From Syntrophales bacterium (GTDB lineage Bacteria > Desulfobacterota > Syntrophia > Syntrophales > JACQWR01): DNA of 64,000 nucleotides. The notes beneath the pieces are model-generated. The model worked only from the letters and a program-made list of their open reading frames with translations. It ran no database searches and was not told the origin of the DNA. Positions within the stretch are counted from its first letter, which is position 1. Each line of letters begins with the position of its first letter. The stretch is from the NCBI GenBank assembly GCA_049302035.1, contig JBAQLR010000108.1, positions 4,886 to 68,885 of the forward strand. The letters are read 5' to 3'. Shown one piece after another: positions 25,729-64,000 of the stretch. The translations under genes were made by a program, and so were the position numbers.

Positions 25729-26083
25729 TGGTGGAGGCGGCGGGAGTCGAACCCGCGTCCGAAAACATTCCACTGAAGTTTCTACGTACGTAGACTTTGA
25801 TTTGCTTTCGCCCCCGAAAACTCCCAAAGTCAGGATTGATCAGGCGCTATTCCGTTATCTTTTCGCCCCTCCCCCGCCGGACAAAAGGGAGCAGTTATCC
25901 TGCCTGAATGACGCCCCCATCTGAGCCGACAGGCGAGCCCAGGAGAACGTTAGCCGACTAAGCGGCTAAAGCGTAATCGTAATTATCTGCGATTATGTTT
26001 TCCTACCTGTTTAACGAGGCCTGTAGGAACCTCGGTACGCTGCTGCAGCTTCAACTATCCCCGTCGAAACCGTGACGCCCCCA
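25729..26083 (-). ncRNA. ssrA: tmRNA (transfer-messenger RNA)
   Basis: On the minus strand the 5' end reads GGGGGCGTCACGGTTTCGACGGGG and the 3' end reads CGCGGGTTCGACTCCCGCCGCCTCCACCA. The internal tag frame at 25990-25958 is GCA GAT AAT TAC GAT TAC GCT TTA GCC GCT TAG = ADNYDYALAA*. Confidence 0.92.
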
Positions 26084-50353: not shown

Positions 50354-50442
50354 AATTGTCCGCCCCTCATATAATTGCTCCCCTTGCTGCCATCCAGCCC
50401 CTCTTCTTACTCCCCGCAAAAGCGGGAATTCAGGATCATCCT

Positions 50443-52296
50443 TCACTGCGGCATGTATTCCGGCACGATCTCTTTCAGTTTGCTTTTTATGGCCTCGGCA
50501 TCAAACCTATCCGCGATGACGACTAATTCATCAACCGCCGCCGAAATTTCTGCGTAGGAAAAATGATGATTTCCCCGCAGCACCATGATCTTTTCGTGAT
50601 GCGTCGGAATAATCCCCTCGCCTTCCGTAATCAGTTCTTCGTAGAGTTTTTCTCCCGGCCGCATGCCTGTCGTCACAATTTCGATATCTTTGCCTGGTTC
50701 TAAACCGCTTAGTTTGATCATGGAATGGGCCAAATCGATGATGCGCATGGGCTCGCCCATTTTCAGGATGAAGATTTCCCCACCCTTGCCCATCGCGCCG
50801 GCCTGCAAAATAAGCTGGGCGGCCTCGGGAATGCTCATGAAATAGCGGGTGACATCGGGATGGGTAATCGTTATCGGGCCGCCGGCGGCTATCTGTTGGC
50901 GGAAAAGGGGAATAACCGAGCCGGAACTGCCCAGCACATTGCCGAACCGCACGGCAAGAAATACCGTTTTAACACTGCCATTGAAGCTGGAAGAAAGAAT
51001 TTCGCAAATACGTTTTGTCGTCCCCATGACATTGGTGGGTCGCACGGCCTTGTCCGAGGAAACAAGGATAAATTTTTCGGCGTTGCAGGCGATGGCGGAA
51101 AGCGCCGTGTTCCTCGTTCCCAGCAGATTATTATGGACCGCTTCCCAGGGATTTACTTCCTGCATCGGCACATGTTTATAAGCGGCAGCATGGAAAACAA
51201 CCTGTGGTTTAAATTCCTGAAAGACACGTTCTGTCGCGCCGGGGTTCCGCAAATCGACAAGATAGGCGCAAACATCTTTATAGGCTAATATTTCCCGACA
51301 TTCCATCTCCACCTTATAAAGATTTAATTCGCTGAAATCCAGCAGGGCCAGAGCTTGCGGCCGAAATCGTGCAATCTGCCGCACGAGCTCCTCACCAATG
51401 GAGCCGCCGGCGCCGGTAATCAAAACGCGCTTCCCCAGGAGGTAGCTTTCTATCTCCTTATTGTCCAAGCGGACTTCCTCCCTGCCGATCAAGTCGGCGA
51501 TGGTGACTTCTCGCACCATCTTCAGGGAAACAAGTCCATCAATTAACTCGGCAATAGCCGGCATGGTCTTAAAAGGCTTGCCGGTACTTTTACACGCGAC
51601 GACAATACGTCGCATCTGAGTGCTGTTGGCCGAAGGCGACGTTATAAGAATCTCATCAAAAAAATCGCGATACGATTTTATCTGATCAATATTCCCCAGC
51701 ACGCAAATGCCATGGATAGATCTCCCTATTTTTTCATGGTCATCGTCGAGCAAACCGATGGGGACAAGCTTCACGCCGGGGTTTATCAGCATTTCGCGGA
51801 TAACGCGCTCCGCTGTTGTGCCGGCGCCAATGAGCAGCAACCTTTTGCCATCATGATGTTTTTCGTTCAGAAATAAAGACGGCCGCGTCTGCTCATTAGC
51901 CAAAGCAATGCGGATTGCCAGACGCGACCCGGCTATAAAGAATAACGTCAGTATGTAATCCATGATCACAATGGAATGTGAAAACCCCGCCAATCCGAAG
52001 AGAAATGTTTTGACCAGCACAAGCAGGACGGAGGCAGACGAAGTAGCCTTCAGAATATTCAGGAAATCCACCAGGCTGGTGTACCGCCACATCCCCCGGT
52101 AGAGATTAAAGACTATAAAACAAACCATCTTCAACGGCACGGCAACAAAGATGGTCTGCCTGAAAGTAACAAAGTAATCTTCCGGGATTCGCCCTTCAAA
52201 GCGCAACGCGTAAGCAAGGAAATACGCCAACCCGCTGAGAACTGCATCAACGGCAAACATCACCCAAAAGCTCTTATTCCTAACCAGTTGCTTCAT
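50443..52296 (-). CDS. membrane-bound nucleotide-sugar 4,6-dehydratase (CapD/PglF/WbpM-like)
   Basis: Four N-terminal TM helices, two Rossmann regions ('LLIGAGTTAE' and 'VLITGAGGSIGEEL') and 'MGTTKRICE'. Confidence 0.85.
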   Translation of the reverse strand: MKQLVRNKSFWVMFAVDAVLSGLAYFLAYALRFEGRIPEDYFVTFRQTIFVAVPLKMVCFIVFNLYRGMWRYTSLVDFLNILKATSSASVLLVLVKTFLFGLAGFSHSIVIMDYILTLFFIAGSRLAIRIALANEQTRPSLFLNEKHHDGKRLLLIGAGTTAERVIREMLINPGVKLVPIGLLDDDHEKIGRSIHGICVLGNIDQIKSYRDFFDEILITSPSANSTQMRRIVVACKSTGKPFKTMPAIAELIDGLVSLKMVREVTIADLIGREEVRLDNKEIESYLLGKRVLITGAGGSIGEELVRQIARFRPQALALLDFSELNLYKVEMECREILAYKDVCAYLVDLRNPGATERVFQEFKPQVVFHAAAYKHVPMQEVNPWEAVHNNLLGTRNTALSAIACNAEKFILVSSDKAVRPTNVMGTTKRICEILSSSFNGSVKTVFLAVRFGNVLGSSGSVIPLFRQQIAAGGPITITHPDVTRYFMSIPEAAQLILQAGAMGKGGEIFILKMGEPMRIIDLAHSMIKLSGLEPGKDIEIVTTGMRPGEKLYEELITEGEGIIPTHHEKIMVLRGNHHFSYAEISAAVDELVVIADRFDAEAIKSKLKEIVPEYMPQ

Positions 52297-52342
52297 AAGC
52301 TATCGCCTTCCTTCGGCTGCTACCGCCCCTGCTATGAGCGCT

Positions 52343-52379
52343 GCCATAAAATTTTAAAGACCTGCCCCCCAAAGTTGCA
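52343..52379 (-). repeat. CJR copy 0 (diverged)
   Basis: gccataaaattttAAAGACCTGcCCCCCAAAGTTGCA. It contains the stop codon of ATPase 1. Confidence 0.55.
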
Positions 52380-53667
52380 TGTTGTTCGGGGTTTGAAAAT
52401 CAATTTGGTTGTTGTCGATCGTCCGGGCGGTTTCCAGGGAACGATTCAGGATCACGAATTTTTCCGGGTGGTAGGCGTCGATGAAGCTGCGGCCGGAGCG
52501 ACTGAGCCCGGGCCGATCCAGATCGGCGAATTTGACTTCCATGGCCATGATTTTCCCCGCCTGTTCGACCACGAAGTCCACCTCCCCACCGCCCTTGCTT
52601 CTCCAGAAATGGATGTCTGAAGTCAGCGGTATACGTTTGTAAAGCTCCGAGAACGCCCAGTTCTCCATCAGGGCGCCTTTGTCGGTTCTCAACAAAATGT
52701 CGTCCGAAAAGGCATTGAGCAACTGATTCCGTATCCCGTTATCGATAAAAAATATTTTAGGCGCCGTGGTAAGTTCCCGGCGCTTCCCGCCGGCAAAGGG
52801 CCGGACAACTTTGACGATATGGCTCTCCTCAAGAATTTCCACGTAGGCATGGATCGTGCCCGCGTCCACACGGCACACCGAAGCCAGTTCCGAAAAATTC
52901 ACAAGATTTCCGGTTTGTCCTGCCAGCAACGTGAGGAGTTTCCGGAAAACATCCACCCGTTTGATGCGGAAGAGATCCGATGCGTCTCGCAGTATCAAGG
53001 CTTCGGTCAGGTCGGAGAGCAGGCGAACCCGATCCTGGTCCGCGGGCGCAAGATAAACGGCCGGGTAACTGCCGTGGATCATCTGCCGGTGGAAAATTCT
53101 CTCGCATAAACTCCTCATGGCGACAGGATTCTCCGGGGTTTCCTGTCGCATCAATTCCTTGAGACTGAACGGCAGCAGCCGCAGCCGGTCCGCCCTGCCC
53201 GCGAGGGATTCCCTTGTCTTGCTCATCAAGTGGAAGGATGAAGAACCGGTCACCAGAACGGGGATGCCCAATCTGGCGTCTACCAACCCCTTCACGAAGA
53301 TGCCGGCGTCGGTCAGGTGTTGGGCTTCGTCAAGAAAGAGGGCACGGATGAAGGAATAGCGTTCCCGGAGCAGCGAAACAAGCTCTACAGCAACGCCGAG
53401 GACCGAGCGCAGGAGCGGGTCTTCCAGATTGAGGTAAAGAATATTGGGCGCAAGAGATTGGAGAAGGCGCCAGGCAAGGGTGGACTTCCCGGATTGACGG
53501 GGGCCGACGATGAGGAGGGCGCGATCTTTCCGGAGCGAAACCGGTTCAGGCTCGCGCAGAACATAGGTTCCGGGAAGATAGCGACGAATCAATCCGTCGG
53601 CCTGGCCAGGCTGCGTCAGCCAGGGATTGTATTGAAGTATCCGGTTTTGGACTTCGCCACTCAACAT
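52354..53667 (-). CDS. DUF4143-type AAA+ ATPase with a C-terminal PD-(D/E)xK-like motif (COG1373-like), paralogue 1
   Basis: Walker A 'GPRQSGKST' and Walker B 'LFLDEAQH'. The C-terminal motif is 'FWRSKGGGEVDFVVE...AMEVKF'. An alternative GTG start lies at 53673. Confidence 0.8.
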   Translation of the reverse strand: MLSGEVQNRILQYNPWLTQPGQADGLIRRYLPGTYVLREPEPVSLRKDRALLIVGPRQSGKSTLAWRLLQSLAPNILYLNLEDPLLRSVLGVAVELVSLLRERYSFIRALFLDEAQHLTDAGIFVKGLVDARLGIPVLVTGSSSFHLMSKTRESLAGRADRLRLLPFSLKELMRQETPENPVAMRSLCERIFHRQMIHGSYPAVYLAPADQDRVRLLSDLTEALILRDASDLFRIKRVDVFRKLLTLLAGQTGNLVNFSELASVCRVDAGTIHAYVEILEESHIVKVVRPFAGGKRRELTTAPKIFFIDNGIRNQLLNAFSDDILLRTDKGALMENWAFSELYKRIPLTSDIHFWRSKGGGEVDFVVEQAGKIMAMEVKFADLDRPGLSRSGRSFIDAYHPEKFVILNRSLETARTIDNNQIDFQTPNNMQLWGAGL

Positions 53668-53673
53668 GGCCAC

Positions 53674-53702
53674 TGTCTATCCTGTCTAATAATGATTGTC
53701 AA
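53674..53702 (-). promoter_or_regulatory. candidate promoter abutting the ATPase-1 start (leaderless layout)
   Basis: On the minus strand: TTGACA (53702-53697), 17 nt, TAGACA (53679-53674), 6 nt, ATG (53667). Confidence 0.45.
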
Positions 53703-53969
53703 CCATAATCAGCCATCATAATCGGGGATGTCTGCAAAAATAGGAATGGATAGGCGCTGTCTGTCCCCGGAAAAGCTTACAAGCTGTTTCAATACGTGTT
53801 TTCTTACACTGCCGTAGAGGGCTTTGTATATCAATCGAGGTAATTCGTCAAACCCTGTATTCCATTTTCTTCACTCGCACTATAGAAGTAAGCCCTTTAT
53901 CGAAGGGAACCATAGCGCTTTACATATCCCCCCTTTTGTGTTGGCAAAAGCGGTGAAGGTTTCTATTGC

Positions 53970-54090
53970 GAGACCTTTGAATTTTGTCATTTCGAGGAGC
54001 ATTAGCGACGAGAAATCTTAATGCTCGTGTATAGTTAAAGATTTCTCCCTTCGGTCGAAATGACAATATTGGCAGTTATTCAAAGGTCTC
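53970..54090 (+). mobile_element. 121-bp MITE, copy A
   Basis: Terminal inverted repeats GAGACCTTTGAAT...ATTCAAAGGTCTC. It is about 97-99% identical to the copies at 60830, 62414 and 62926. Confidence 0.85.
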
Positions 54091-54111
54091 AATGACGCCC
54101 TAATTAACCGT

Positions 54112-54152
54112 CCCCCCGGCAAAACGCTAAAAAGCAAGACCTGACCCCCAAG
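54112..54152 (-). repeat. CJR copy 1
   Basis: CCCCCCGGCAAAACGCTAAAAAGCAAGACCTGACCCCCAAG, 6 nt downstream of the sugar-transferase stop. Confidence 0.85.
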
Positions 54153-54158
54153 TACTCC

Positions 54159-54734
54159 TTAATGGTGAACATTCTCCGCCCGCGTAACCTTAAAAAACGT
54201 CAAAACCAGTATCTTCAAATCAAACCAAAACGAGCAGTGATGCAAATAATACTCATCAAACTCCACCTTTTGGGGAATCGGAATATCATCCCGGCCGTTA
54301 ATCTGCGCCCAGCCCGTGATCCCCGGAATTAATCGATGAACACCGCGTTCCGTCCGCAAGGCAATCAGATCATCCTGATTGAACAACGCCGGCCGGGGCC
54401 CCACAAAACTCATATCGCCCTTCAAAACACTCCACAATTGCGGTAATTCATCCAGACTTGATCTTCGCAGAAAGGGACCAATTGGCGTCAGAAACTGATC
54501 GGGATCCGATAACAAGTGCGTCGCAACCGCAGGCGTATCAATACGCATCGTCCTGAATTTCGGCATACGGAAAATACTGTTGTCCTTACCAACCCGATCA
54601 GACCAATATAAAAAAGGCCCTTTTGATGTCGTTTTCACCAAAAGGGCAACAATAATCATCGGAACGATTAAGACTAAAAGAAGAATTATCGTAGCAGTTA
54701 AATCAAATAATCGCTTAACGACCTTATAAACCAC
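54159..54734 (-). CDS. small polyprenyl-phosphate sugar-phosphate transferase (PglC/WbaP-C-terminal type)
   Basis: One TM helix, then '[25 protein letters not shown]...[21 protein letters not shown]'. The start codon is GTG. Confidence 0.85.
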
Positions 54735-54790
54735 CTGATTCCCGCATTCCCTACCTTGCTCTGTGGCTGGTTCAATCTTACAGATTGGAC

Positions 54791-54850
54791 CAAAACACTA
54801 AGCAACTATGAACTAAGAACTAATAACTAAAAAGACCTGACCCCCAAAAC
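54791..54850 (-). repeat. CJR copy 2, with a central 4 x 7-bp expansion
   Basis: CAAAACACTAAGC-[AACTATG AACTAAG AACTAAT AACTAAA; 54804-54831]-AAGACCTGACCCCCAAAAC. Confidence 0.8.
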
Positions 54851-54854
54851 TTGC

Positions 54855-55253
54855 TCACCACAAAACGTGCAACCCGTTTTTACGGTACGCTGAAAAGGCC
54901 TTGTCCTGAGATATGAGCGTTAGTTTGTGAGTAATGGCCTGCCAAATAATCAAACGGTCAAAGGGATCTTTGTGTTCCTTGCGCGGCAGGTTGTGAAAGG
55001 TGGCCGCATCTGTATCGGCAAGCGGCAGGATGTCAAAACCCGATTGGAGAACAAGTGCGGGGAAGTTCTCAGGCGTTACATTGCCCAGGTCAAGCCTGCC
55101 AATAGAATACTTGAGGGATATCTCCCAAAAGCTGACCACACTGACCAACACGGCCATGTCGGGGTTCCGGATACTAATCGCAGCTTTTTTCCCAAGCCGT
55201 TCGGGATCAAAAAGCGACCAGAGCAACGTATGTGTATCAAGAAGGAAACTCAT
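54855..55253 (-). CDS. vapC: PIN-domain toxin
   Basis: 'MSFLLDTHTLLW' and 'HKDPFDRLIIWQA' are VapC signatures. Confidence 0.85.
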   Translation of the reverse strand: MSFLLDTHTLLWSLFDPERLGKKAAISIRNPDMAVLVSVVSFWEISLKYSIGRLDLGNVTPENFPALVLQSGFDILPLADTDAATFHNLPRKEHKDPFDRLIIWQAITHKLTLISQDKAFSAYRKNGLHVLW

Positions 55254-55495
55254 AGAGACAGAAACTCATTCTCACTGATCTTGAAGTCATCCTTTAGGGA
55301 AAACGATGCCTTCCCGGCCAAGAGCCCTAACTTACGTTCCGGTTTGCGTTCGTAGTGCGAAAAGGGAACCAGCACGGCTATCTTCTCCTTCTTTTTGCCG
55401 AAGCTGATGACGATGTCCTCACCCTGTTGCACTAATTCAAGCGCCTTTGAAAAATGCGCTTTCACGTTACCAACTGTCATGGTATGCATAGCCAC
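55250..55495 (-). CDS. Phd/YefM-type antitoxin
   Basis: 81 aa. 'VKAHFSKALELVQQGEDIVI'. Its stop overlaps the vapC start. Confidence 0.7.
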   Translation of the reverse strand: MAMHTMTVGNVKAHFSKALELVQQGEDIVISFGKKKEKIAVLVPFSHYERKPERKLGLLAGKASFSLKDDFKISENEFLSL

Positions 55496-55514
55496 TTACC
55501 TCATTTTTTATTTC

Positions 55515-55543
55515 AGTATATGCTTTTCGTGACATGTTGTCAA
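55515..55543 (-). promoter_or_regulatory. candidate promoter of the phd-vapC cassette
   Basis: On the minus strand: TTGACA (55543-55538), 17 nt, TATACT (55520-55515). A GAGGT Shine-Dalgarno sequence precedes the ATG at 55495. Confidence 0.55.
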
Positions 55544-55584
55544 GAAAATGAAGGCAGTGCTATAGTACACTCAGCACTATCTTT

Positions 55585-55624
55585 CCCCGGCAAAACGCTA
55601 AAATGCAAGACCTGACCCCCAAAA
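55585..55624 (-). repeat. CJR copy 3
   Basis: CCCCGGCAAAACGCTAAAATGCAAGACCTGACCCCCAAAA. Confidence 0.85.
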
Positions 55625-55631
55625 TCATTGC

Positions 55632-55925
55632 TTAAAGGGTGGCCGAATTGAGCCAGTCTTCCAGGTTGACGTTCAAGGCCATGTTCCTCTTTTTCAGCAG
55701 CAGGAGAAAGTCCCAGGTGTCCAAATCCAGCAGGCGGCAGGCTTCTTCAACGGAAAGATCGCCGGTCTGATACTTCGCCAAAAGCCTCTCCTGCCTGTCT
55801 TCTGCAAACCCTTTTTGCAGGATTTCCCGCAGATACGCCGACTTATCGAGGCGCATATCTTTGACAAACGAGGTTAGCTCCTTCAAAAACTCTTCAGGTA
55901 TCCTCACGGTTGCCGGTTTCAACAT
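55632..55925 (-). CDS. UPF0175-family antitoxin-like protein
   Basis: 'VRIPEEFLKEL...LAKYQTGDLSVEEACRLLDLDTWDFLLLLKK' fits the UPF0175/COG2886 pattern. Confidence 0.55.
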   Translation of the reverse strand: MLKPATVRIPEEFLKELTSFVKDMRLDKSAYLREILQKGFAEDRQERLLAKYQTGDLSVEEACRLLDLDTWDFLLLLKKRNMALNVNLEDWLNSATL

Positions 55926-56475
55926 TTCCCATCTCCTTCAGTATCAATAAAGCTTCAGCAATGATATCCGGTGCATACTGTCCCTCAATGCGCATCTTTT
56001 CAATGGCTGCTTTTGCCAAAGGTTTTTCGATGCATCCATGCCGGTACAGCTCCGTGGCGATCTTCGGGGATATGATAAAGGGCAGATTCAGAAATCTGCA
56101 TGTTTTAATGGCCTTCCCGTCGTCCGTGGCCAGGATCGCGCCTTCGCCCATCTCCTGTGCGAGCCTGATTGCCGCCCATTCCCCCTTGCCAAGCGTAAGG
56201 GGAGGCTTGCGATCCGGTAATTCTTTGGAGAATATTTCAATGTTTCCCTGTGAAGTCATGACGGATATACTTTTCGCATCGGGAAACTTCTCGATCGTAT
56301 CCTGATTGACCACTTCTTCGAATACCGCCGCCGGGATGATTGAGTCAAGACGAAAAACCAGAAACTGTAGAAACGCTAAAATGTGTATTGTTAAAAGGGT
56401 GCGGGCTGATTCGGAGAGCTTTTCCGGCTGGCCGGCAGCCCACAGGACAATGTGGGTATCGAGCAGCAGCTTCAC
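55894..56475 (-). pseudogene. chimeric ORF: VapC N-terminal fragment fused through a CJR half-site to an N-terminally truncated COG2405/DUF3368-like PIN protein
   Basis: Residues 1-29, 'MKLLLDTHIVLWAAGQPEKLSESARTLLT', are a VapC N-terminus. The linker 'IHILAFLQF' is encoded by the half-repeat at 56369-56384. The remainder, 'IPAAVFEEV...LGKGEWAAIRLAQE...ILATDDGKA', is DUF3368-like and lacks its first Asp segment. Confidence 0.55.
56369..56384 (-). repeat. CJR half-site (distal half only)
   Basis: AGAAACGCTAAAATGT matches the repeat up to its centre, after which the similarity stops. Confidence 0.6.
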
Positions 56476-56732
56476 GAAGGCGTTCCTTCAAAAAGTTCGA
56501 CCAGCGACCTTGCCGCCAGAGAATCAAAATCGTCGGGTACCGCAATCTCACCGGCCATAAACCCCAGCTTTTCAGCCCCTTGCAACTCCCCTTCCGATAG
56601 CGGCGAAACCTTAACCATCGGCTTGCCTGCCTTGGCAATGATAAAAACATTCCCTTTGGCGGCCTCATCGACCAGGCGTGAAAGGTGCGTCTTCGCTTCG
56701 TGGATATTGACGGTTTGCATGGAACACCTCAT
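56472..56732 (-). CDS. Phd/YefM-type antitoxin
   Basis: 86 aa. 'VNIHEAKTHLSRLVDEAAKGNVFIIAKAGKPMVKV'. Its stop overlaps the truncated vapC start (ATGA). Confidence 0.7.
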   Translation of the reverse strand: MRCSMQTVNIHEAKTHLSRLVDEAAKGNVFIIAKAGKPMVKVSPLSEGELQGAEKLGFMAGEIAVPDDFDSLAARSLVELFEGTPS

Positions 56733-56799
56733 AGGACTTAGTTTAGTGGGCTAAGCCTAATCTTCTCATATTCAGCCTTTGTCAAGTTTTCCTCTTGCT

Positions 56800-56839
56800 C
56801 CCCGGAAAAACGCTAAATGTTCAAGACCTGACCCCCAAA
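56800..56839 (-). repeat. CJR copy 4
   Basis: CCCCGGAAAAACGCTAAATGTTCAAGACCTGACCCCCAAA. It contains the mazF-like stop codon. Confidence 0.85.
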
Positions 56840-57186
56840 TAGAGGCTGTTCTTGAGCGCCATGTCCACCTTTTCCATGAGCTCATCTGAGAGAGTCGCAA
56901 GTTTCGACCCGGTCAACCGCCCCTTATCGAGGGTGCGGATCTGTGAGAGATTGACGATGGAATCCTTTTTCAGGCCGGAATCTTTGCCGATGACTACGCA
57001 GATTGGGTAAGTAGCTTTTTTCTCGGAATATTCGGTGATGACGGCGACGATGGTCGTGGGTGAATACCGATTGCCGACATCGTTCTGAACAATCAGCACC
57101 GGCCGGGTTTTTCCGGTTTCGCTTCCCACCACTGGGTCGAGCGCTGCGTAATAGATTTCTCTTCTTTTGACCTGCAGAGGAGTCAT
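56821..57186 (-). CDS. MazF/PemK-family toxin
   Basis: 'REIYYAALDPVVGSETGKTRPVLIVQNDVGN'. Confidence 0.85.
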   Translation of the reverse strand: MTPLQVKRREIYYAALDPVVGSETGKTRPVLIVQNDVGNRYSPTTIVAVITEYSEKKATYPICVVIGKDSGLKKDSIVNLSQIRTLDKGRLTGSKLATLSDELMEKVDMALKNSLYLGVRS

Positions 57187-57461
57187 GGAGCAACCTCGGG
57201 GAGATTTTCGGCGTCAGAGAATTTGAAATCCTCACAGATACGGATGTTTTCCTCGGCGAGATCCTGATAGGCTGCTTTCATTCGTGCCTCGAGATCCTGC
57301 CTGTCGAGCTGCATTAATTTTTCCTCGATGGATTCCCGCACGAGTGTGGAAACATTTTTCCCTTCCCGGGTAGAGGCTTGGGAAAGCCTGTTCTTGATCT
57401 CTGCAGAGAGTTGAATATTGAGCCGCGTTTTTTCCTGCTGTGCCGTTGAGAGCATTTTCAC
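57183..57461 (-). CDS. ribbon-helix-helix (CopG-like) antitoxin
   Basis: 'RLNIQLSAEIKNRLSQASTREGKNVSTLVRESIEEKL'. It overlaps the toxin start. Confidence 0.65.
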   Translation of the reverse strand: MKMLSTAQQEKTRLNIQLSAEIKNRLSQASTREGKNVSTLVRESIEEKLMQLDRQDLEARMKAAYQDLAEENIRICEDFKFSDAENLPEVAP

Positions 57462-57542
57462 ACCTCTATTTTATGTATAAATGATGTGTAATATCTTGTA
57501 GCAAAAAACGACAGGGAGAGCAATGGAAAATCTTCCCCACCT

Positions 57543-57589
57543 CCCCGGCAAAACGCTAAATTTCAAGACCTGACCCCCAAAAAGTTGCA
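57543..57589 (-). repeat. CJR copy 5 (closest to consensus)
   Basis: CCCCGGCAAAACGCTAAATTTCAAGACCTGACCCCCAAAAAGTTGCA. It encodes the last 10 codons of ATPase 2. Confidence 0.9.
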
Positions 57590-58734
57590 ATATTTTGCCA
57601 GGGGACTATCGAAATGTTTTTGTTGGTCAGGGCTTTATCTCCGCCATAAATTAGCCGGGCCGGCGCTTCCGGCTGCCCGGCCAGCTTCAGCCAACGCTTT
57701 AGTGACGTGAAGGAATCCGGAGCGATTGTCTGCCCCGATTTAATTTCGATTGCCTCGAGTTCCTCGCCCTCTTCCCGGATCAGATCGATTTCCAGACCTT
57801 TACTATCTCTCCAATAAAAGAGATTTGCCGGCAGCCCCTCGTTGAAGCGGCCTTTTAAAAATTCGGTCACCACAAACGTCTCAAATAGCGCTCCCCGCTG
57901 GGCATGAAAGCGAACCTGTTCCGGGGTGTTAATTCCCAGCAACCAGGCCGCCAAACCGACATCGCAGAAATACAACTTGGGTGCCTTGATCAAGCGTTTA
58001 TTGAAGTTCCGGTGATGGGGGCGCAGCAGATAGATCAGATAACTCGCCTCCAGGACGGATATCCACGCTGCCGCGGTATTATGCGTAATGCCGCAATCGG
58101 AGGCCAGTGATGACAAGTTCAGAATTTGACCGGTGCGGGCGGCGCACATCTTGACGAAGCGCTGGAATGCCGAGAGATCGCGGACGTTGATCAACTGTCG
58201 CGCATCCCGTTCCACATAGGTGGCGATGTAGCCGGAAAACCAGTCGCCGGAAAAAATGTCACGGTCGTACAGCGGGGGGTACAATCCCCGCACCAGCAGC
58301 TCTTCAAGAGAATCAGGCAGCTGCCGAACAGCGGCAAGCTCTTCGGCGGCAAAGGTCAGCAGGTGTATCATCCCGACACGCCCCGCTAATGATTGAGTAA
58401 TGCCCGACAGCAGCCCAAATTGCTGAGAACCGGTCAATACAAACATACCGGGGATGATTTTCTCATCCACTTTTGTCTGGAGATAGGAGAAAAGGTGCGG
58501 CGCACGCTGAGCTTCATCCAGGATCGCGCCGTCACGAAAAGCGGCCAAAAGACCTCGGGGGTCGCTTTCCGCCGTGGCTCTGACATCGGGATCTTCCAGC
58601 GACAGATAGGGTTTTTGGGGGAAGGTCAGTTTTGCCAGCGTGGTCTTGCCGGATTGACGCGGCCCCGTAATGGCAACGATGGGAAAGCCTTTTGCCAGAC
58701 GGAGCAGGGCTTTTTGTGCTGTTCTCGGTATCAT
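57556..58734 (-). CDS. DUF4143-type AAA+ ATPase/nuclease-like, paralogue 2
   Basis: Walker A 'GPRQSGKTT' and Walker B 'AILDEAQR'. The C-terminal motif is 'YWRDSKGLEIDLIRE...AIEIKSG'. Confidence 0.8.
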   Translation of the reverse strand: MIPRTAQKALLRLAKGFPIVAITGPRQSGKTTLAKLTFPQKPYLSLEDPDVRATAESDPRGLLAAFRDGAILDEAQRAPHLFSYLQTKVDEKIIPGMFVLTGSQQFGLLSGITQSLAGRVGMIHLLTFAAEELAAVRQLPDSLEELLVRGLYPPLYDRDIFSGDWFSGYIATYVERDARQLINVRDLSAFQRFVKMCAARTGQILNLSSLASDCGITHNTAAAWISVLEASYLIYLLRPHHRNFNKRLIKAPKLYFCDVGLAAWLLGINTPEQVRFHAQRGALFETFVVTEFLKGRFNEGLPANLFYWRDSKGLEIDLIREEGEELEAIEIKSGQTIAPDSFTSLKRWLKLAGQPEAPARLIYGGDKALTNKNISIVPWQNIATFWGSGLEI

Positions 58735-58740
58735 GGGTGC

Positions 58741-58791
58741 ATATTATGCGGAGTTGCACATATTGTCAATACAATTTACAATATGTGCAAC
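58741..58791 (-). promoter_or_regulatory. candidate leaderless promoter plus a perfect 14-bp inverted repeat
   Basis: On the minus strand: TTGACA (58769-58764), 17 nt, TAATAT (58746-58741), 6 nt, ATG (58734). The inverted repeat GTTGCACATATTGT (58753-58766) / ACAATATGTGCAAC (58778-58791) overlaps the -35 element. Confidence 0.5.
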
Positions 58792-58792
58792 T

Positions 58793-58824
58793 CAAAACGC
58801 TAAATTTCAAGACCTGACCCCCAA
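58793..58824 (-). repeat. CJR copy 6
   Basis: CAAAACGCTAAATTTCAAGACCTGACCCCCAA, directly after the PIN-gene stop (58825-58827). Confidence 0.9.
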
Positions 58825-59223
58825 TTACTTGCTAATTGCAGACCAGAATCCTCTTGGGGTCACGATTTTCGTGTCCTTATAGGCAAGCAGACATAATAAA
58901 TCCTGGTCTCCCGTGATTATGTATTCTGCCAATGAACGGTGAGCGAGGCCCAACACATGAATATCGTTCTTATCTCTGCACAATGACTCATCTAAATCAT
59001 CGGTCCCGGAAACAAGACAATTTTCTCTCAAATACGACACGATCAACCGGCATTGCGGTAAGGGGAGCTTGATTTTTCGCTCTAAATTTGTTGATACTTC
59101 CGCTAAAATCGCTTCACTCACGATGACATCAAACCGGTCAAGGCAGAGCTCGAAAACTGCGCTGCAGAGCCCACGACTGGCAAAGGCAGCAATGATCACA
59201 TTGGTATCAAGAATGACCTTCAT
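58825..59223 (-). CDS. PIN-domain toxin
   Basis: 'MKVILDTNVIIAAF' and 'YIITGDQDLL'. Confidence 0.8.
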   Translation of the reverse strand: MKVILDTNVIIAAFASRGLCSAVFELCLDRFDVIVSEAILAEVSTNLERKIKLPLPQCRLIVSYLRENCLVSGTDDLDESLCRDKNDIHVLGLAHRSLAEYIITGDQDLLCLLAYKDTKIVTPRGFWSAISK

Positions 59224-59438
59224 GAAATCATGTTGAATATATCTTCATCAGACAATATGCCCTGCGCCTCTGCAAATGGCAGTACCATATTTTTTAACCT
59301 GCGAAAGCGGTAAATAGCCAAATACCGTTTTAAGGATTCGCGCACGATATCACTCACCGGTTTATTCTCGTTTCTGCTTAATTCCTGCAACCCTTCTCTC
59401 ATGTCATCGGGCAGCCGGATAGTAAGAGTTTGATTCAT
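59220..59438 (-). CDS. ribbon-helix-helix antitoxin
   Basis: 'LTIRLPDDMREGLQELSRNENKPVSDIVRESLKRYL'. Confidence 0.65.
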   Translation of the reverse strand: MNQTLTIRLPDDMREGLQELSRNENKPVSDIVRESLKRYLAIYRFRRLKNMVLPFAEAQGILSDEDIFNMIS

Positions 59439-59453
59439 AGAGCACCTCCATTC

Positions 59454-59489
59454 GTGTTACAACGTAACACGCCCTGGTATTGCTGTCAA
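59454..59489 (-). promoter_or_regulatory. candidate promoter and operator of the RHH-PIN cassette
   Basis: On the minus strand: TTGACA (59489-59484), 17 nt, TACGTT. The palindrome GTGTTAC-aac-GTAACAC (59454-59470) overlaps the -10. A GGAGG Shine-Dalgarno sequence precedes the ATG. Confidence 0.45.
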
Positions 59490-59519
59490 CAAAAAACCGC
59501 GCAATAACATCGGGACAGA

Positions 59520-59559
59520 CAAAACGCTAAATTTCAAGACCTGACCTCCAAAAATTGCA
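59520..59559 (-). repeat. CJR copy 7
   Basis: CAAAACGCTAAATTTCAAGACCTGACCTCCAAAAATTGCA. It contains the ATPase-3 stop codon. Confidence 0.9.
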
Positions 59560-60679
59560 TTTCTGACAACCAGTTTTGAGCGGTGCGGATTTCCAGGCCG
59601 TCGGGATAGGTTTTTTCCCTTTTGAGTTCCTTGACAATCTGGATTTTTTTTGCGCCGGGCAGATATTTCTCGAATAAAGAAAATTTCGCACGACCCTCCG
59701 CATCGCTCCATTTAACTTCGAGCATCAGTGCCGGCTTATCTTCCCTGGTGAGAAAAAAATCAATCTCCCTGCCGTCCTTGTTTCTGAGGTAATAAACGTT
59801 CCATTTTTCGCCGAGGCAATCCTCGCGGAAATGCATTTCTTTCAGCAAGGCACAGGCAACAAGATTTTCCAGCTTCATTCCCGGATCATCCGGCGCCTGC
59901 CCGGTATCGTAAAAATAGTATTTGGGCGCCTTGAGAATGGACCGGGAAATGTTGCGATGAAAAGGGGGTACCTTGAAAACGACATAGAGTGTTTCCAGAA
60001 TAGTCAGCCATCTCTTGACGGTCTTGTCCGAACACTGAAGATCCTCGGCCAGCGAGCTGTATGATATGGGACTGCCAATCTTTCTCCTCAGAAGCTGGAT
60101 GAGTGTTTCAAACGAAGTTATCTGCTGCACATTTTCCAGATCGATCAAGTCCTGCTTCAGAATGATGTCCAGATGGCTTCTCTTCCAGCGATTGTAATAG
60201 GACGCATCGCTTTCCAGAAAGGGCTCAGGAAATCCGCCGATCGCCAAAAGCCTGTCAAGTTTTTCCTCCAGTTTATCTGGCCCCAGCACACTTTTAATTT
60301 CCTTCAGATCAAGGGGGTGGAGCCGAAACTCAAAAAACCTTCCCGCCAGGGAATCGCCTGCCTTTTTAAAGACATCCAGCTTTGCGCTTCCGGTCACCAC
60401 CAGGGAAGGCGGGATGCTTTCGGCATCGTAGATGCCCTTCAGCCATGATTTCCAGTTCTTGAGTTTGTGAAGCTCGTCAAAAATCACCAGATCTTTGGAG
60501 CGATCCCATGACTTATCCAGCAGACTCAGGCGGTGTTCGGCATAATCATAATTGAAATAATCGAAATTATGACTGAGCATCTTTGCCAGGGTCGTCTTGC
60601 CGACCTGTCTCGGGCCGGTGATCAGGACGATTTTTCTTTTAAGATCTTTCTGAATGTATTCTTCGAGGTATCTCTTCAT
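59534..60679 (-). CDS. DUF4143-type AAA+ ATPase/nuclease-like, paralogue 3
   Basis: Walker A 'GPRQVGKTT' and Walker B 'VIFDELHK'. The C-terminal motif is 'YYLRNKDGREIDFFL...MLEVKWS'. Confidence 0.8.
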   Translation of the reverse strand: MKRYLEEYIQKDLKRKIVLITGPRQVGKTTLAKMLSHNFDYFNYDYAEHRLSLLDKSWDRSKDLVIFDELHKLKNWKSWLKGIYDAESIPPSLVVTGSAKLDVFKKAGDSLAGRFFEFRLHPLDLKEIKSVLGPDKLEEKLDRLLAIGGFPEPFLESDASYYNRWKRSHLDIILKQDLIDLENVQQITSFETLIQLLRRKIGSPISYSSLAEDLQCSDKTVKRWLTILETLYVVFKVPPFHRNISRSILKAPKYYFYDTGQAPDDPGMKLENLVACALLKEMHFREDCLGEKWNVYYLRNKDGREIDFFLTREDKPALMLEVKWSDAEGRAKFSLFEKYLPGAKKIQIVKELKREKTYPDGLEIRTAQNWLSEMQFLEVRS

Positions 60680-60685
60680 GCGGCT

Positions 60686-60728
60686 ATTCTATCCTGCATT
60701 CCGAAAAAGTCAAGACTTTTTCGGAATG
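60686..60728 (-). promoter_or_regulatory. candidate leaderless promoter plus a 15-bp inverted repeat
   Basis: On the minus strand: TTGACT (60713-60708), 16 nt, TAGAAT (60691-60686), 6 nt, ATG (60679). The inverted repeat CATTCCGAAAAAGTC (60697-60711) / GACTTTTTCGGAATG (60714-60728) is centred on the -35 element. Confidence 0.5.
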
Positions 60729-60741
60729 GCTGCCTGTTCCT

Positions 60742-61113
60742 ATGGACATTATAGCCATGCAGCATTCAGGTTTAAGTGTGAGACAAATTGCCCGTAAACT
60801 GGGCATTCACAGAAATACGGTGAAGAAGCGAGACCTTTGAATTTTGTCATTTCGGGGAGCATTAGCGACGAGAAATCTTAATGCTCGTGCATAGTTAAAG
60901 ATTTCTCCCTTCGGTCGAAATGACAATATTGGCAGTTATTCAAAGGTCTCGCAGCATATTGAGAACAAAGCGTTTCCTCATTACCATCAGTCTAAACGAG
61001 GCGTAAGCATTCTGGAACCATATAAGCAAATCATCAACGATTACCTTGACCAGGATGACTACCAGGCAACCTGGGTTTTCGATAGAATCAAAAGGACCGG
61101 ATATCCCGGTTTC
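60742..61113 (+). pseudogene. IS21-family istA 5' remnant, split by a MITE and truncated at a CJR
   Basis: It reads 'MDIIAMQHSGLSVRQIARKLGIHRNTVKK', then the MITE, then 'HIENKAFPHYHQSKRGVSILEPYKQIINDYLDQDDYQATWVFDRIKRTGYPG'. This is an IstA-type HTH N-terminus and nothing follows it. Confidence 0.6.
60830..60950 (+). mobile_element. 121-bp MITE, copy B
   Basis: Same element and orientation as copy A. The flanks GAAGC / GCAGC look like an imperfect 5-bp duplication. Confidence 0.85.
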
Positions 61114-61153
61114 CAAAACGCTAAATTTCAAGACCTGACCCCCAAAAGTTGCA
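61114..61153 (-). repeat. CJR copy 8
   Basis: CAAAACGCTAAATTTCAAGACCTGACCCCCAAAAGTTGCA. It contains the ATPase-4 stop codon. Confidence 0.9.
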
Positions 61154-62282
61154 GTTTTTCTATTAAGGTGGGGAGGCTCACAAATGTTACTTCTATCCCT
61201 TTGTAATTTCTGCTAAACGGTTTTTCGACATCCGTGGCCGCCACCAGGGAATCTCCTTCGGGATAACGTTCACGAAACAGTTTCAGATTACCCGGATCGA
61301 AATCGGTCGCCGACCATTTGCATTCAATCGCCACCGGCGGCTTTCCTCTTGCGGCGATCACAAAATCAATTTCATGACCGCGCTTATCACGCCAGTACAT
61401 CACATTCCTCATCTGGAGACGTCCCTGAATCTCGTTCAGGACATAATGCTCCCAGAGCAGCCCCCGGTCTTCCCGCCGGAGTTCACGCCATCCCCGGTAA
61501 TAACAGACAAATCCCGTATCAAAGCCATACACTTTGGGAGCGGAAATGATCTCCGCCGCCTTGTTGCTGCTGAAGGGCCGGACAATGTGCGCCACGTAGG
61601 TCGCCTCGAGAACGGCAAGGTAATTGGCAATGGTCGGCCGGCTGACCTCGCAGGGTCCGGTAAAGCGTGATGCCTCAAAAATGCCGCCGCTCTGCGCCAT
61701 CAGCAGCTCGAAAAACCGCTGGAAGGCGTGTCGACGGCCCAGATGAAAGAGCTCTTGAATATCTTTCGCCCAATAACCGTCCACCCAATCCTGGAAATTC
61801 CGCTCCGGCACGGTCTCGGATAAATAGAACGGCGGCATTCCCCCAAAAAGCAGCCGCTTCGCCAGATCGGCATCCCCGAAATCGGCAAGATCCTGCACCA
61901 GCATGGGGGTGAGCCAGAGGGACTCCTTGCGGCCCGTCAGCGTATCCTTGAATTTGGCGGATGCGCCCAGGGTGGAAGAACCGGTGGCAAGAATCCGCAC
62001 ATCCGGATAGTGATCTGCAGCGATCTTGAGAAGCTCCGAGGGATTTTGCAGACGATGGATTTCGTCGAGGATGATCGTGCGCCCCCGGAGGGGTCGAAGA
62101 AACCCTTCGGCATCTTCCAGCATCGCCCGAACACGGGGCAGCTCGCAATCGAAGTATTCAGCATCCGTAAGACTCTGGCTCAGAAAGGTCTTCCCCACGC
62201 GCCTGACCCCGGAGAGCCAGATCACCGATCGCCTTTCCCAAGCCTTGCCTATCTGTTCCAACCAGAATGATCTTTTCTTCAT
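61128..62282 (-). CDS. DUF4143-type AAA+ ATPase/nuclease-like, paralogue 4
   Basis: Walker A 'GVRRVGKTF' and Walker B 'IILDEIHR'. The C-terminal motif is 'MYWRDKRGHEIDFVI...AIECKWS'. Confidence 0.8.
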   Translation of the reverse strand: MKKRSFWLEQIGKAWERRSVIWLSGVRRVGKTFLSQSLTDAEYFDCELPRVRAMLEDAEGFLRPLRGRTIILDEIHRLQNPSELLKIAADHYPDVRILATGSSTLGASAKFKDTLTGRKESLWLTPMLVQDLADFGDADLAKRLLFGGMPPFYLSETVPERNFQDWVDGYWAKDIQELFHLGRRHAFQRFFELLMAQSGGIFEASRFTGPCEVSRPTIANYLAVLEATYVAHIVRPFSSNKAAEIISAPKVYGFDTGFVCYYRGWRELRREDRGLLWEHYVLNEIQGRLQMRNVMYWRDKRGHEIDFVIAARGKPPVAIECKWSATDFDPGNLKLFRERYPEGDSLVAATDVEKPFSRNYKGIEVTFVSLPTLIEKLQLLGVRS

Positions 62283-62288
62283 GCAACC

Positions 62289-62317
62289 ATAATTTCACAT
62301 AGTGACACTAATTGCAA
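62289..62317 (-). promoter_or_regulatory. candidate leaderless promoter of ATPase 4
   Basis: On the minus strand: TTGCAA (62317-62312), 17 nt, AATTAT (62294-62289), 6 nt, ATG (62282). Confidence 0.4.
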
Positions 62318-62335
62318 GTAAAACATCATTTAGTA

Positions 62336-62348
62336 CAAAACGCTAAAT
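62336..62348 (-). repeat. CJR half-site (distal half only)
   Basis: CAAAACGCTAAAT, after which similarity to the consensus ends. Confidence 0.6.
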
Positions 62349-62413
62349 CACCGCGAAGCAGGCCCGATAGTTTTGGTTGAGGCAAACCCATACGGCGCCC
62401 GGCTTCCTCTTGT

Positions 62414-62534
62414 GAGACCTTTGAATAACTGCCAATATTGTCATTTCGACCGAAGGGAGAAATCTTTAACTATGCACGAGCATTAAGATTTCTCGTCGCT
62501 AATGCTCCTCGAAATGACAAAATTCAAAGGTCTC
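62414..62534 (-). mobile_element. 121-bp MITE, copy C
   Basis: Reverse orientation relative to A and B, flanked by a direct CTTGT duplication. Confidence 0.9.
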
Positions 62535-62770
62535 CTTGTGACAAGCCAAGATTGCGCACAGCCTTAGTGATTTCAATCACGAGCCCAGACTTGATTTTGA
62601 GTTTATCGGCCTCAGGCAAGTCAAGATCGGTTTGCGGTTCACGGACGTTTTCCAGCGGTCTAAGAAATCAGTAACGGTGCGTTTCATGGATGACTAAATA
62701 CACTATGTGTGTATTTTCTGCAAGGACTATTTACCTTAGACAGGTGTTACTTCTCAGTGCGTAGCTCCCA

Positions 62771-62806
62771 CCCCGGCAAAACGATAAATTTAAAGACCCC
62801 CAAAAC
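62771..62806 (-). repeat. CJR copy 10 (variant with a 5-nt internal deletion)
   Basis: CCCCGGCAAAACGATAAATTTAAAGAC-----CCCCAAAAC. Confidence 0.75.
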
Positions 62807-62846
62807 TAAGCTTGACAATCTGTATTTTATAAAATACGATACCGGC

Positions 62847-63267
62847 ATGTACGAGATTATGCAGAGTGCCACATTCTCCCAATGGTTGAGTGGCTTGAAA
62901 GACCAACAGGCACGAATGCGCATACGAGACCTTTGAATAACCGCCAATATTGTCATTTCGACCGAAGGGAGAAATCTTTAACTATGCACGAGCATTAAGA
63001 TTTCTCGTCGCTAATGCTCCTCGAAATGACAAAATTCAAAGGTCTCGCATACATGTGCGACTTGACCGTGTTAGGTTGGGCAATTTTGGTGATGCAGAGC
63101 CCACTGGGGAAGGACTTTCCGAATTGCGTATTCACTACGGCCCAGGTTATCGGCTATATTACATTCGGCGCGCGCTACGGGTCGTGATGTTGTGCGGTGG
63201 CGATAAGTCCTCTCAGCCCCACGATATTGAAAAAGCGAAAATAATCGCTAAGGAATGGAGGGATTAG
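62847..63267 (+). pseudogene. higB: HigB/RelE-type 'addiction module killer' toxin gene interrupted by a MITE
   Basis: It reads 'MYEIMQSATFSQWLSGLKDQQARMRI', then the MITE, then 'HVRLDRVRLGNFGDAEPTGEGLSELRIHYGPGYRLYYIRR...CGGDKSSQ'. Removing the MITE and one GCATAC copy restores the frame. Confidence 0.75.
62926..63046 (-). mobile_element. 121-bp MITE, copy D
   Basis: Same orientation as C, flanked by a direct GCATAC duplication. Confidence 0.9.
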
Positions 63268-63270
63268 ATT

Positions 63271-63561
63271 ATGTCCGAGAAATTTACCCGATACGATACG
63301 GCCGAATACCTGAAAACCGATGCGGATATGGCGGCTTACCTTGATGCCTGTCTGGAAGAAGCAGGGGACGACCCTGCCTTTATCGCCAATGCGTTGGGTG
63401 TGATTGCACGCGCGCGCGGAATGACGCAGCTTGCTCGCGACACTGGATTGGCGCGGGAAAATTTATACAAAGCGCTTTCCGCCGATGGAAATCCTGAATT
63501 TGGCACGATTCTGAAAGTTATTAAAGCTCTCGGACTAAAGCTCCACGCGCAATCTGCATGA
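63271..63561 (+). CDS. higA: HigA-family 'addiction module antidote' HTH antitoxin
   Basis: 'FTRYDTAEYLKTDADMAAYLDACLEE...IARARGMTQLARDTGLARENLYKALSADGNPEFGTILKVIKALGLKL'. Confidence 0.75.
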   Translation: MSEKFTRYDTAEYLKTDADMAAYLDACLEEAGDDPAFIANALGVIARARGMTQLARDTGLARENLYKALSADGNPEFGTILKVIKALGLKLHAQSA

Positions 63562-63633
63562 TGAGAGCTTTGCATAACTACGATTTCACCCCCCCGGCCC
63601 ATTTATCGACAACGACAACCTCCGCAGGCTATT

Positions 63634-63999
63634 TTAGACGCAGCTACCGTCCCAATACTGTTCGGCCCCTAATTTGCTTATCATTTCGAAGGTTCTTTTT
63701 GTAGGTTTGCGTCCTGTCCAGAGGGTAATGAGCATGCCTGAGATCAGGGCGCAATAGATTTGTATGGTTAGCCCGTTTTTAGATAGGGCGACGAGGTGAT
63801 TGCACCCGAGGACGCATTTGAACCACCGGAAGAAGAGTTCGATCTGCCAACGGCGCGTAAAGAGAAGAGCAATGGTTTCTGCCGGCAGGTCCAGGAGGTT
63901 CGTTGCCAGTAGTAAGTTGTAATCGACATCCTTGGTGCGAAAGGTTTTCTTGCTGGAAACCCTTGAGGGTCTATGATCGTTTTCATCCCCTTTGTGGAA
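63634..63999 (-). mobile_element. IS4-family DDE transposase, C-terminal 121 codons (the gene continues beyond the window)
   Basis: The minus-strand frame from 63999 reads '...ETIALLFTRRWQIELFFRWFKCVL...', a Y(F)-x2-R-x3-E-x6-K-type motif. The stop codon is at 63636-63634. Confidence 0.7.
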
Positions 64000-64000
64000 A

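Follow-up and report, generated by a model that had tools for sequence, protein, structure and literature searches.

Why should some 10 kb of a single bacterial genome hold four genes of the same family that differ so strongly from one another, and what might these genes do? The question is raised by a 64,000-nucleotide stretch of DNA from a Syntrophales bacterium (contig JBAQLR010000108.1), referred to here as the window, in which four DUF4143 genes are interspersed with toxin–antitoxin (TA) modules and with copies of a short sequence that we call the junction repeat. The genes are ordinary members of a known family in an unusually dense setting. Their most likely role, to which we assign a rough probability of 45–50%, is defence against foreign DNA by an ATP-controlled nuclease that represses its own expression.

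The four open reading frames (ORFs) reported in an earlier note on this DNA are all intact and are located on the minus strand. Gene 1 (52354..53673) encodes 439 amino acids if read from the GTG at 53673 that opens the ORF; the probable start is the ATG at 53667, which matches the start kept in an orthologous locus (L042). Gene 2 (57556..58734), gene 3 (59534..60679), and gene 4 (61128..62282) encode proteins of 392, 381, and 384 amino acids, respectively. Both Pfam domains that define the family exceed their gathering scores in every protein, with 70–100 bits for AAA_14 (gathering score 27) and 113–169 bits for DUF4143 (gathering score 28.1). In addition, the PDC-S01 hidden Markov models of PADLOC match all four proteins end to end (approximately residues 1–380), with E-values from 4.7e-54 to 4e-100. 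Protein 3 also gives weak Pfam hits to ATPase_2 and DUF234.

In a four-way alignment, the Walker A motif reads GPRQSGK[ST] or GVRRVGKT, the Walker B motif includes (L/F)DE, and the C-terminal region carries G.E(I/V)D...E(V/I/C)K. The elements G..GK[ST], DE, and G.E.D ... E.K are invariant across the four proteins. Most of the motif description in the earlier note therefore holds, except for its [YF]WR element, which is replaced by YLR in protein 3.

Pairwise identity among the four proteins is only about 30%, and for this reason they are not recent duplicates, in agreement with the earlier note. Comparison with other lineages indicates that the genes are independent acquisitions. Each has relatives that are 70–98% identical in other lineages or phyla; those of gene 2, for example, are found in Smithella, Syntrophales, Nitrospiraceae, and Brocadiaceae, and the identity of close homologs across phyla reaches 70–84%. 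Orthologs with high nucleotide identity are available for gene 1 (82%, L042) and gene 4 (92%, L029). The corresponding ratios of non-synonymous to synonymous substitution (dN/dS) are 0.13 and 0.16, which indicate that both genes are under purifying selection.

A sequence search of the PDB with the window proteins returned P-loop noise only, with no solved structure detectable, and the structure of protein 2 was therefore predicted. The full-length AlphaFold model has a predicted local distance difference test (pLDDT) score of 90.5 and a predicted template modelling (pTM) score of 0.90. Its best match in the PDB is the Pyrococcus abyssi ATPase PABY2304 (2QEN; Foldseek E-value 4.5e-6, TMq 0.44), followed by Orc1/Cdc6, RuvB, clamp-loader, and STAND ATPases. 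PABY2304 likewise combines a P-loop ATPase with a winged helix, but the identity is only 14% and the protein belongs to another Pfam family (Arch_ATPase, PF01637, often found with DUF234).

When the last 127 amino acids of protein 2 are modelled alone (pLDDT 87), they form an alpha-beta-beta-beta-alpha-beta core that superposes best on the nuclease domain of Can2 with template modelling (TM) scores of 0.59–0.63 and a probability of 1.0. This domain also matches VC1899, Cdn1, Hjc resolvases, Bax1, and EcoT38I. The residues E285, E315, D317, E330, and K332 are invariant in an alignment of 29 sequences, composed of two subfamilies and the other two window proteins. The model places these residues on helix 1, strand 2, and strand 3, which is the canonical distribution in PD-(D/E)xK enzymes. 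It thus predicts a P-loop ATPase of the ORC/Cdc6/STAND kind together with a winged helix, and a PD-(D/E)xK nuclease at the C terminus. The nuclease-like C terminus that had been proposed from motifs alone is borne out, since the modelled domain superposes on known nucleases and its E/D/ExK residues do not vary, and a family without a nuclease fold is not what these results describe.

A useful comparison is with Can2, Card1, and Cdn1, whose PD-(D/E)xK domains superpose on the C terminus of protein 2 (TM score ~0.6, probability 1.0). By analogy, the N-terminal part of the window proteins might act as an alpha/beta nucleotide-binding sensor domain that controls the C-terminal nuclease. However, the sensor in Can2, Card1, and Cdn1 is a CARF domain, whereas the window proteins carry a Walker A/B P-loop ATPase, and the window lacks a CRISPR or cyclic-oligoadenylate context.

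The sequence matches identify the family as one that is already catalogued, corresponding to COG1373, to the Pfam combination of AAA_14 and DUF4143, and to the single-gene phage defence candidate (PDC) PDC-S01 of PADLOC. At the protein level, there is no difference between PDC-S01 and the window proteins, which have the same fusion of an ATPase to a PD-(D/E)xK domain. What sets the window apart is its context, with a junction repeat, a location in a polysaccharide locus, and four divergent genes in 10 kb (a sister strain has five). In 2012, DUF4143/COG1373 appeared in a list of PD-(D/E)XK families, with its function given as unknown (PMC3424549). The PDC systems trace back to genes located within BREX, DISARM, and type I restriction–modification (RM) loci, and 145 untested candidates were released (bioRxiv 10.1101/2024.01.29.577857). 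A survey from 2026 describes PDC-S01 as an ATPase fused to PD-(D/E)xK and ranks it fourth among the most common 'defence' systems in prokaryotes (PMC12988326). A Thermus homolog is induced 6.6-fold with plasmid DNA present (PMC4406477). Four candidates protected E. coli B in a challenge with phages T4, T5, and T7, but the one PDC-S01 representative included was not one of them (bioRxiv 10.1101/2024.09.26.614923).

A profile built from the four window proteins matches 40,162 representatives of 50% identity clusters at E≤1e-3, and homologs are present on 336 plasmid records. We also considered whether the family is carried by phages and rejected this idea, because only seven doubtful matches were found among 50,697 phage records and only 13 loci with homologs in IMG/VR, where several matches are close to the end of the viral contig. 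With so few such matches, the family is essentially cellular and plasmid-borne.

The regions upstream of the genes contain features that reflect their likely function as independent units. Gene 2 is preceded by a promoter-like site (TTGACA-17-TAATAT, 58769–58741) within a palindrome of 20+20 nucleotides (58751–58793), the whole feature spanning 58741..58793 on the minus strand. Gene 3 has a similar arrangement at 60686..60728 (minus strand), where TTGACT-16-TAGAAT (60713–60686) lies within a perfect palindrome of 15+15 nucleotides (60697–60728). Both promoter-like sites score 10/12. For gene 1, an imperfect palindrome centred on TTGAC (53693..53711, minus strand) forms a putative operator and −35 element, and the L042 ortholog has a longer and better palindrome at the corresponding position. 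The −35 TTGAC is the palindrome centre in all three of these genes, and the arms differ between subfamilies. On the basis of these features, the genes are described as self-contained single-gene modules, each probably composed of a sigma-70-type promoter, with the −35 element in the palindrome centre, and the ORF.

These palindromes are retained over long distances. Homologs from Nitrospiraceae (L053) and from a second Syntrophales genome (L052) have the core of the gene 2 palindrome upstream of them, and the gene 3 palindrome is kept in Smithella (L056) and in Acidobacteriota (L059). Within subfamily 3, the arms have changed symmetrically, in a compensatory manner (TCCGAAAAAGTCTTGACTTTTTCGGA versus TCCGGAATAGTCTTGACTATTCCGGA). 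The palindromes therefore look like subfamily-specific, putative autoregulatory operators. The window proteins give helix-turn-helix (HTH) hits, and autorepression is the simplest reading because the winged helix of the protein itself is the only DNA-binding domain that the module carries.

The genomic settings of the close homologs are varied. The Nitrospiraceae homolog is a lone insertion between NamZ and SecG/TIM/AspRS genes, the Acidobacteriota homologs are lone insertions among housekeeping genes, and in another Syntrophales genome the homolog is inserted in a glycosyltransferase cluster. The Smithella homolog of gene 3 (L056) adjoins Y1 transposases of the IS200 type, including a Y1_Tnp gene of 158 amino acids, as well as an MmeI-type RM gene and AbiEii. 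It is flanked by a different repeat (L056 7431–8000 and 9134–9340), which belongs to a classical family of repetitive extragenic palindromic (REP) elements with GTAGGG and a GC-rich hairpin. Because the Smithella homolog has a different repeat, repeat-rich surroundings seem to be a property of the landing neighbourhoods and not of the genes. The junction repeat of the window is absent from the loci of homologs that are 71–86% identical (L052, L053–55, L056, and L059).

Within the window, the core of the junction repeat reads AAGACCTGACCCCCAA on the plus strand, and its form on the coding strand is roughly GCAAnTTTTGGGGGTCAGGTCTTGaaaTTTAGCGTTTTGCCGGGG. Nine copies of the core are found on one strand between 52357 and 61145, with none elsewhere in the 64 kb, and there is one extra core match with three mismatches on the opposite strand. 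These 10 matches compare with 0.6 expected, and none of 100 shuffles reaches 10. The repeat is about 36–45 nucleotides long with a conserved part of about 36 nucleotides, and all window copies of the repeat are co-oriented, so that the coordinates that follow refer to the minus strand. The terminal copy (52349..52379), which has a degenerate right half, overlaps the stop codon of gene 1 and abuts a CapD-like gene. Other copies lie over the stop codons of gene 2 (57549..57591), gene 3 (59520..59562), and gene 4 (61114..61156), between an RHH/PIN_3 module and gene 2 (58793..58835), after a Bac_transf gene (54120..54162), and at 55591..55633 and 56807..56849. TTAGTTn heptamer repeats come after a variant copy at 54816..54858. 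Directly upstream of the gene 4 module, the repeat is reduced to its right half (62336..62348), whereas L029 has the same junction with a full repeat.

The stop codons of all four DUF4143 genes are thus located inside repeat copies, which are read in two frames (...WGSGLEI* and ...LGVRS*). Homologs end a few codons before the window proteins (those of gene 3 have 377–378 amino acids), which indicates that the repeat has replaced the native stop codon and supplies the last codons. The boundaries on the 5′ side are less uniform. A repeat copy is directly upstream of gene 2, but a 124-nucleotide miniature inverted-repeat transposable element (MITE) lies between the repeat and genes 1 and 3, and gene 4 has the half repeat. 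The view of the earlier note that each gene is bounded by the junction repeat is therefore correct with these qualifications.

The orthologs define the relationship between repeat and gene more closely. The 5′ junction of the gene 4 ortholog in L029 is identical, but there is no repeat on its 3′ side, where an ABC-2 transporter gene follows. The gene 1 ortholog in L042 has the repeat at its 3′ end and none at its 5′ end. In L060, a core of about 27–35 nucleotides of the repeat is missing 3′ of gene 2, and the remainder is TTTTTGGGGGGGAAGATAG. The idea that the repeat is the intrinsic end of DUF4143 modules was rejected, given that one copy is missing from each of L029 and L042 and that homologs outside the lineage lack the repeat altogether. 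These comparisons indicate that the junction repeat is not part of the DUF4143 unit and accumulates at module junctions, which it marks in many but not all cases. As a separate observation, heptamer tandem repeats stand directly after some repeat copies, with TTAGTTn at 54790–54832 of the window (minus strand) and heptamers of the CTGAGTG/CTGAGGG type elsewhere (L030 ~100–1800; L060 2885–2915).

The modules follow one another on the coding strand in the order gene 4, MITE, gene 3, RHH/PIN_3, gene 2, PemK pair, PhdYeFM/DUF3368/UPF0175, PhdYeFM/PIN, Bac_transf, MITE, gene 1, CapD-like, and GalE-like. The TA modules (PhdYeFM/PIN, UPF0175/DUF3368/PhdYeFM, the PemK pair, and RHH_1/PIN_3), named from the Pfam annotation of an identical metagenome contig, are on the minus strand within 54855..59438, a span that includes gene 2. 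A strong promoter-like site is also found upstream of a TA module. Bac_transf (54159..54734, minus strand) is a sugar transferase gene of the polysaccharide locus; the gene 1 module stands between it and the CapD-like gene.

We compared window positions 52350–58790 with L060 (7413 nucleotides), L061, and L062, which belong to a set of closely related strains (L060–L064). These strains have blocks that are 97–99% identical to the window at the nucleotide level but arranged in another order, namely PhdYeFM/PIN, gene 2, a 77/59-amino acid pair, Bac_transf, an extra DUF4143 gene of 395 amino acids, MITE, and gene 1. They also carry different TA modules, and the edges of the blocks coincide with the junction repeat or are a few bases away from it. 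Because near-identical strains differ in the order and number of modules, gain, loss, and re-ordering of modules take place quickly. The claim that each gene forms its own cassette is supported by this variation. The DUF4143 modules belong to a hypervariable accessory island that further contains TA pairs, the repeat, MITEs, and insertion sequences (IS), and that has grown into the end of a polysaccharide locus of the Syntrophales bacterium.

The junction repeat is also found elsewhere. A scan with one genome per species located it in 46 loci, nearly all of them in metagenome-assembled genomes (MAGs) of Syntrophales, Syntrophaceae, or Syntrophus, from which 106 core-matched copies were collected. 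Its neighbours in these loci include MNT/HEPN pairs, AbiEii, eight AAA_14/DUF4143 genes, PIN genes, polysaccharide genes, and Y1 transposases, and its orientation relative to neighbouring genes is mixed. Structurally, a single repeat unit does not fold as DNA, with minimum free energies (MFEs) of −0.7 to −1.2 kcal/mol and z-scores of +0.9 to +1.4, and a tandem dimer does not fold either. Inverted doublets form perfect hairpins (L021, −33 kcal/mol), and tandem copies also occur. Among the latter are head-to-tail copies of an approximately 40-nucleotide unit (GCAAGTTTTGGGGGTCAGGTCTTGAAATTTAGCGTTTT) with no gene between them (L020 45–111 and 2343–2426; L032 3952–4034 and 6286–6365).

Among the repeat neighbours are genes that resemble REP-associated tyrosine transposases (RAYTs), whose products have about 300 amino acids with a Y1_Tnp domain and a C-terminal HTH. 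These were located via the HUH motif and confirmed with Pfam. In L037 (1195–2210, with the RAYT-HTH gene at 1221–2126) and in L050 (7028–8000) together with L025 (1–536), the gene is flanked by inward-facing copies of the repeat, and in three further cases repeat copies are present within about 160 nucleotides of such a gene (L045 1084–2547; L007 1467–2386; L020 2343–2893). A Y1 gene flanked by inward-facing repeats is the arrangement of RAYTs. An approximate IS200 TnpA sequence used as a probe had no match in the loci.

On these data, the junction repeat is best read as a family of REP-like elements that has its own cognate RAYT. The repeat resembles REP elements, and the REP doublets known as REPINs with their RAYTs, in being a short repeat dispersed in the intergenic DNA of one lineage, in flanking a Y1_Tnp gene with inward-facing copies (L037, L050/L025), and in having inverted doublets that fold. 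It differs from them in several ways. The single unit is not palindromic, accessory islands contain dense clusters of copies (about 10 in 11 kb versus none in 52 kb), the copies overlap the stop codons of upstream genes, and the transposase beside them has a C-terminal HTH. Two points weigh against the assignment, namely that the link between repeat and RAYT is seen in other MAGs only, the window being without a RAYT gene, and that the single unit lacks the hairpin that defines classical REPs.

Several other identities were considered for the repeat. An attC site was defined as an imperfect palindrome of at least about 57 nucleotides that folds as a hairpin, and this reading was rejected because the repeat unit and its tandem dimer are unfolded as DNA and do no better than shuffles. 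A search of Rfam at E≤1 returned nothing in 50000–64000, so a known RNA was also rejected. Duplication of the end of a tRNA or tmRNA gene was rejected as well, since the only such gene is a tmRNA at 25729–26082, which is far from the island.

What the genes do is best considered together with what moves them. The reading that we favour, defence against foreign DNA, would involve a protein that represses its own promoter via its winged helix and that acts as an ATP-controlled DNA nuclease in conflict with foreign DNA, in phage or plasmid defence that is possibly abortive. Several divergent copies might then provide different recognition specificities. Some observations count against parts of this proposal. 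It is only from the palindromes that we infer autorepression, yet none is convincing for gene 4, and the window copy of the gene 1 palindrome is degenerate. The neighbours in the window are TA modules and polysaccharide genes with no recognised defence systems, the published phage experiment with a PDC-S01 representative was negative, and several close homologs stand alone among housekeeping genes, an arrangement that a selfish gene fits equally well. The genes could indeed be selfish single-gene elements that persist through spread or difficult loss with no net benefit to the host, each an addiction-like or orphan restriction-like nuclease that is held by its own ATPase/repressor, and that pile up where insertions are tolerated. 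Units with their own promoters and palindromes, as in TA systems, that sit among TA modules and occur as lone insertions in Nitrospiraceae and Acidobacteriota are what such elements would look like, and their frequency on plasmids and cross-phylum identity of up to 70–84% point in the same direction. However, a partner antitoxin or methylase is absent, the family was picked up through its embedding in BREX, DISARM, and RM loci, and the Thermus homolog responds to plasmid DNA. The dN/dS values of 0.13–0.16 and the intact catalytic residues would be expected of any functional protein and favour neither reading. We place the selfish explanation second, as the less likely one; it and the defence reading are not mutually exclusive.

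The earlier note had also suggested that the DUF4143 protein is the mobilising component, that is, an ATPase-nuclease that cuts the junction repeat to move or capture cassettes. A single chain with nuclease, ATPase, and DNA-binding domains, present in four copies in an array that is re-ordered between strains, could in principle do so, and several of the eight further DUF4143 genes in repeat-anchored loci abut the repeat. Yet the repeat is found equally at TA modules without DUF4143, at MNT/HEPN and AbiEii genes, and at polysaccharide genes, and it is lacking next to close homologs of the window genes. Moreover, the family comprises more than 40,000 clusters across prokaryotes, whereas the repeat is confined to Syntrophales MAGs; the repeat is uniform despite an identity of only 30% among the four proteins; and the gene that inverted repeat copies flank is the RAYT-like Y1 transposase, not DUF4143. 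We therefore regard a mobilising function as very improbable. Scarcely better placed is the view that the island is an integron-like array, in which an integrase encoded beyond the window would use the repeats as attC-type sites and the DUF4143 genes would be carried as ordinary cargo. The window does resemble integron cassettes in being a co-oriented array of short modules that are each followed by the same repeat, in its TA-rich cargo, which is typical of chromosomal integrons, and in the variation of module order between strains. Against this, the repeat of about 36–45 nucleotides does not form the folded structure of an attC site, most modules have their own promoter, unlike the mostly promoterless cassettes of integrons, the orientation of the repeat relative to genes is mixed in other loci, and tandem and inverted doublets occur. 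Neither an integrase gene nor attI is present in the 64-kb window, towards the end of which the array gives way to MITEs and an IS, and there is no integrase family among the 25 commonest neighbour families of the 46 related loci, where a Y1 transposase is among the recurrent neighbours. Defence by an autorepressed nuclease thus remains our preferred role for the genes.

Earlier publications have described the gene family with its domains and nuclease fold and have put forward the defence hypothesis, and current views are not overturned by this locus. The additions made here are modest but concrete and consist of putative operators that are shared across phyla with compensatory changes, the shuffling of modules at the strain level, and the link between the repeat and a RAYT. 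A more speculative proposal, which we hold to be doubtful, is that the island is a non-integron cassette platform. Junction elements, with a RAYT-like Y1 transposase carrying a C-terminal HTH as their cognate enzyme, would serve as sites where self-promoted TA and PDC-S01 modules are captured, lost, and re-ordered; in a related reading, palindrome-controlled PDC-S01 genes would be autoregulated, single-polypeptide, addiction-like nucleases. If the platform reading were true, the polysaccharide loci of Syntrophales would be a cassette 'shuffling deck' for conflict genes. PDC-S01/COG1373 genes are reported to be among the commonest candidate defence genes of prokaryotes, and in this locus four divergent natural variants stand next to one another, with compact native promoters and putative operators. 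Such a set would be convenient for deciding between a defence nuclease, an addiction-like gene, and a combination of the two, and for examining self-repression. Likewise, the re-ordering of modules and the RAYT-associated repeat provide a tractable case of the assembly of accessory islands beside polysaccharide loci in uncultured syntrophs.

Polysaccharide-biosynthesis loci seem to be a preferred landing zone in several Syntrophales MAGs. DUF4143 genes and TA modules recur in or beside such loci, which include Bac_transf, CapD-like, and glycosyltransferase genes, both in the window (50443–52296 and 54159–54734) and in L008, L015, L042, and L052.

The MITE that separates gene 1 from its upstream repeat (53967..54090, unstranded) has terminal inverted repeats of 16–17 nucleotides (TGCGAGACCTTTGAAT...). 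Further copies are present at 60828–60953, 62411–62534, and 62925–63049. The four copies are 98–99% identical and occur in both orientations, and another is found in L007 (2595–2721). The copy at 62411–62534 disrupts an XRE/HigA-like gene whose counterpart in L015 (5729–6184) is intact. Towards the end of the window, the metagenome contigs that match it break off at the MITEs and IS. Just past a HigB-like/HI1420-type antitoxin pair is a DDE_Tnp_1 transposase gene (63768–64000 in the window; L002 958–1737), and L062 has an IS200 insertion upstream (Y1_Tnp, 135–518). Finally, the tmRNA gene at 25729–26082, which is unrelated to the DUF4143 genes, is on the minus strand and encodes the tag peptide ADNYDYALAA.

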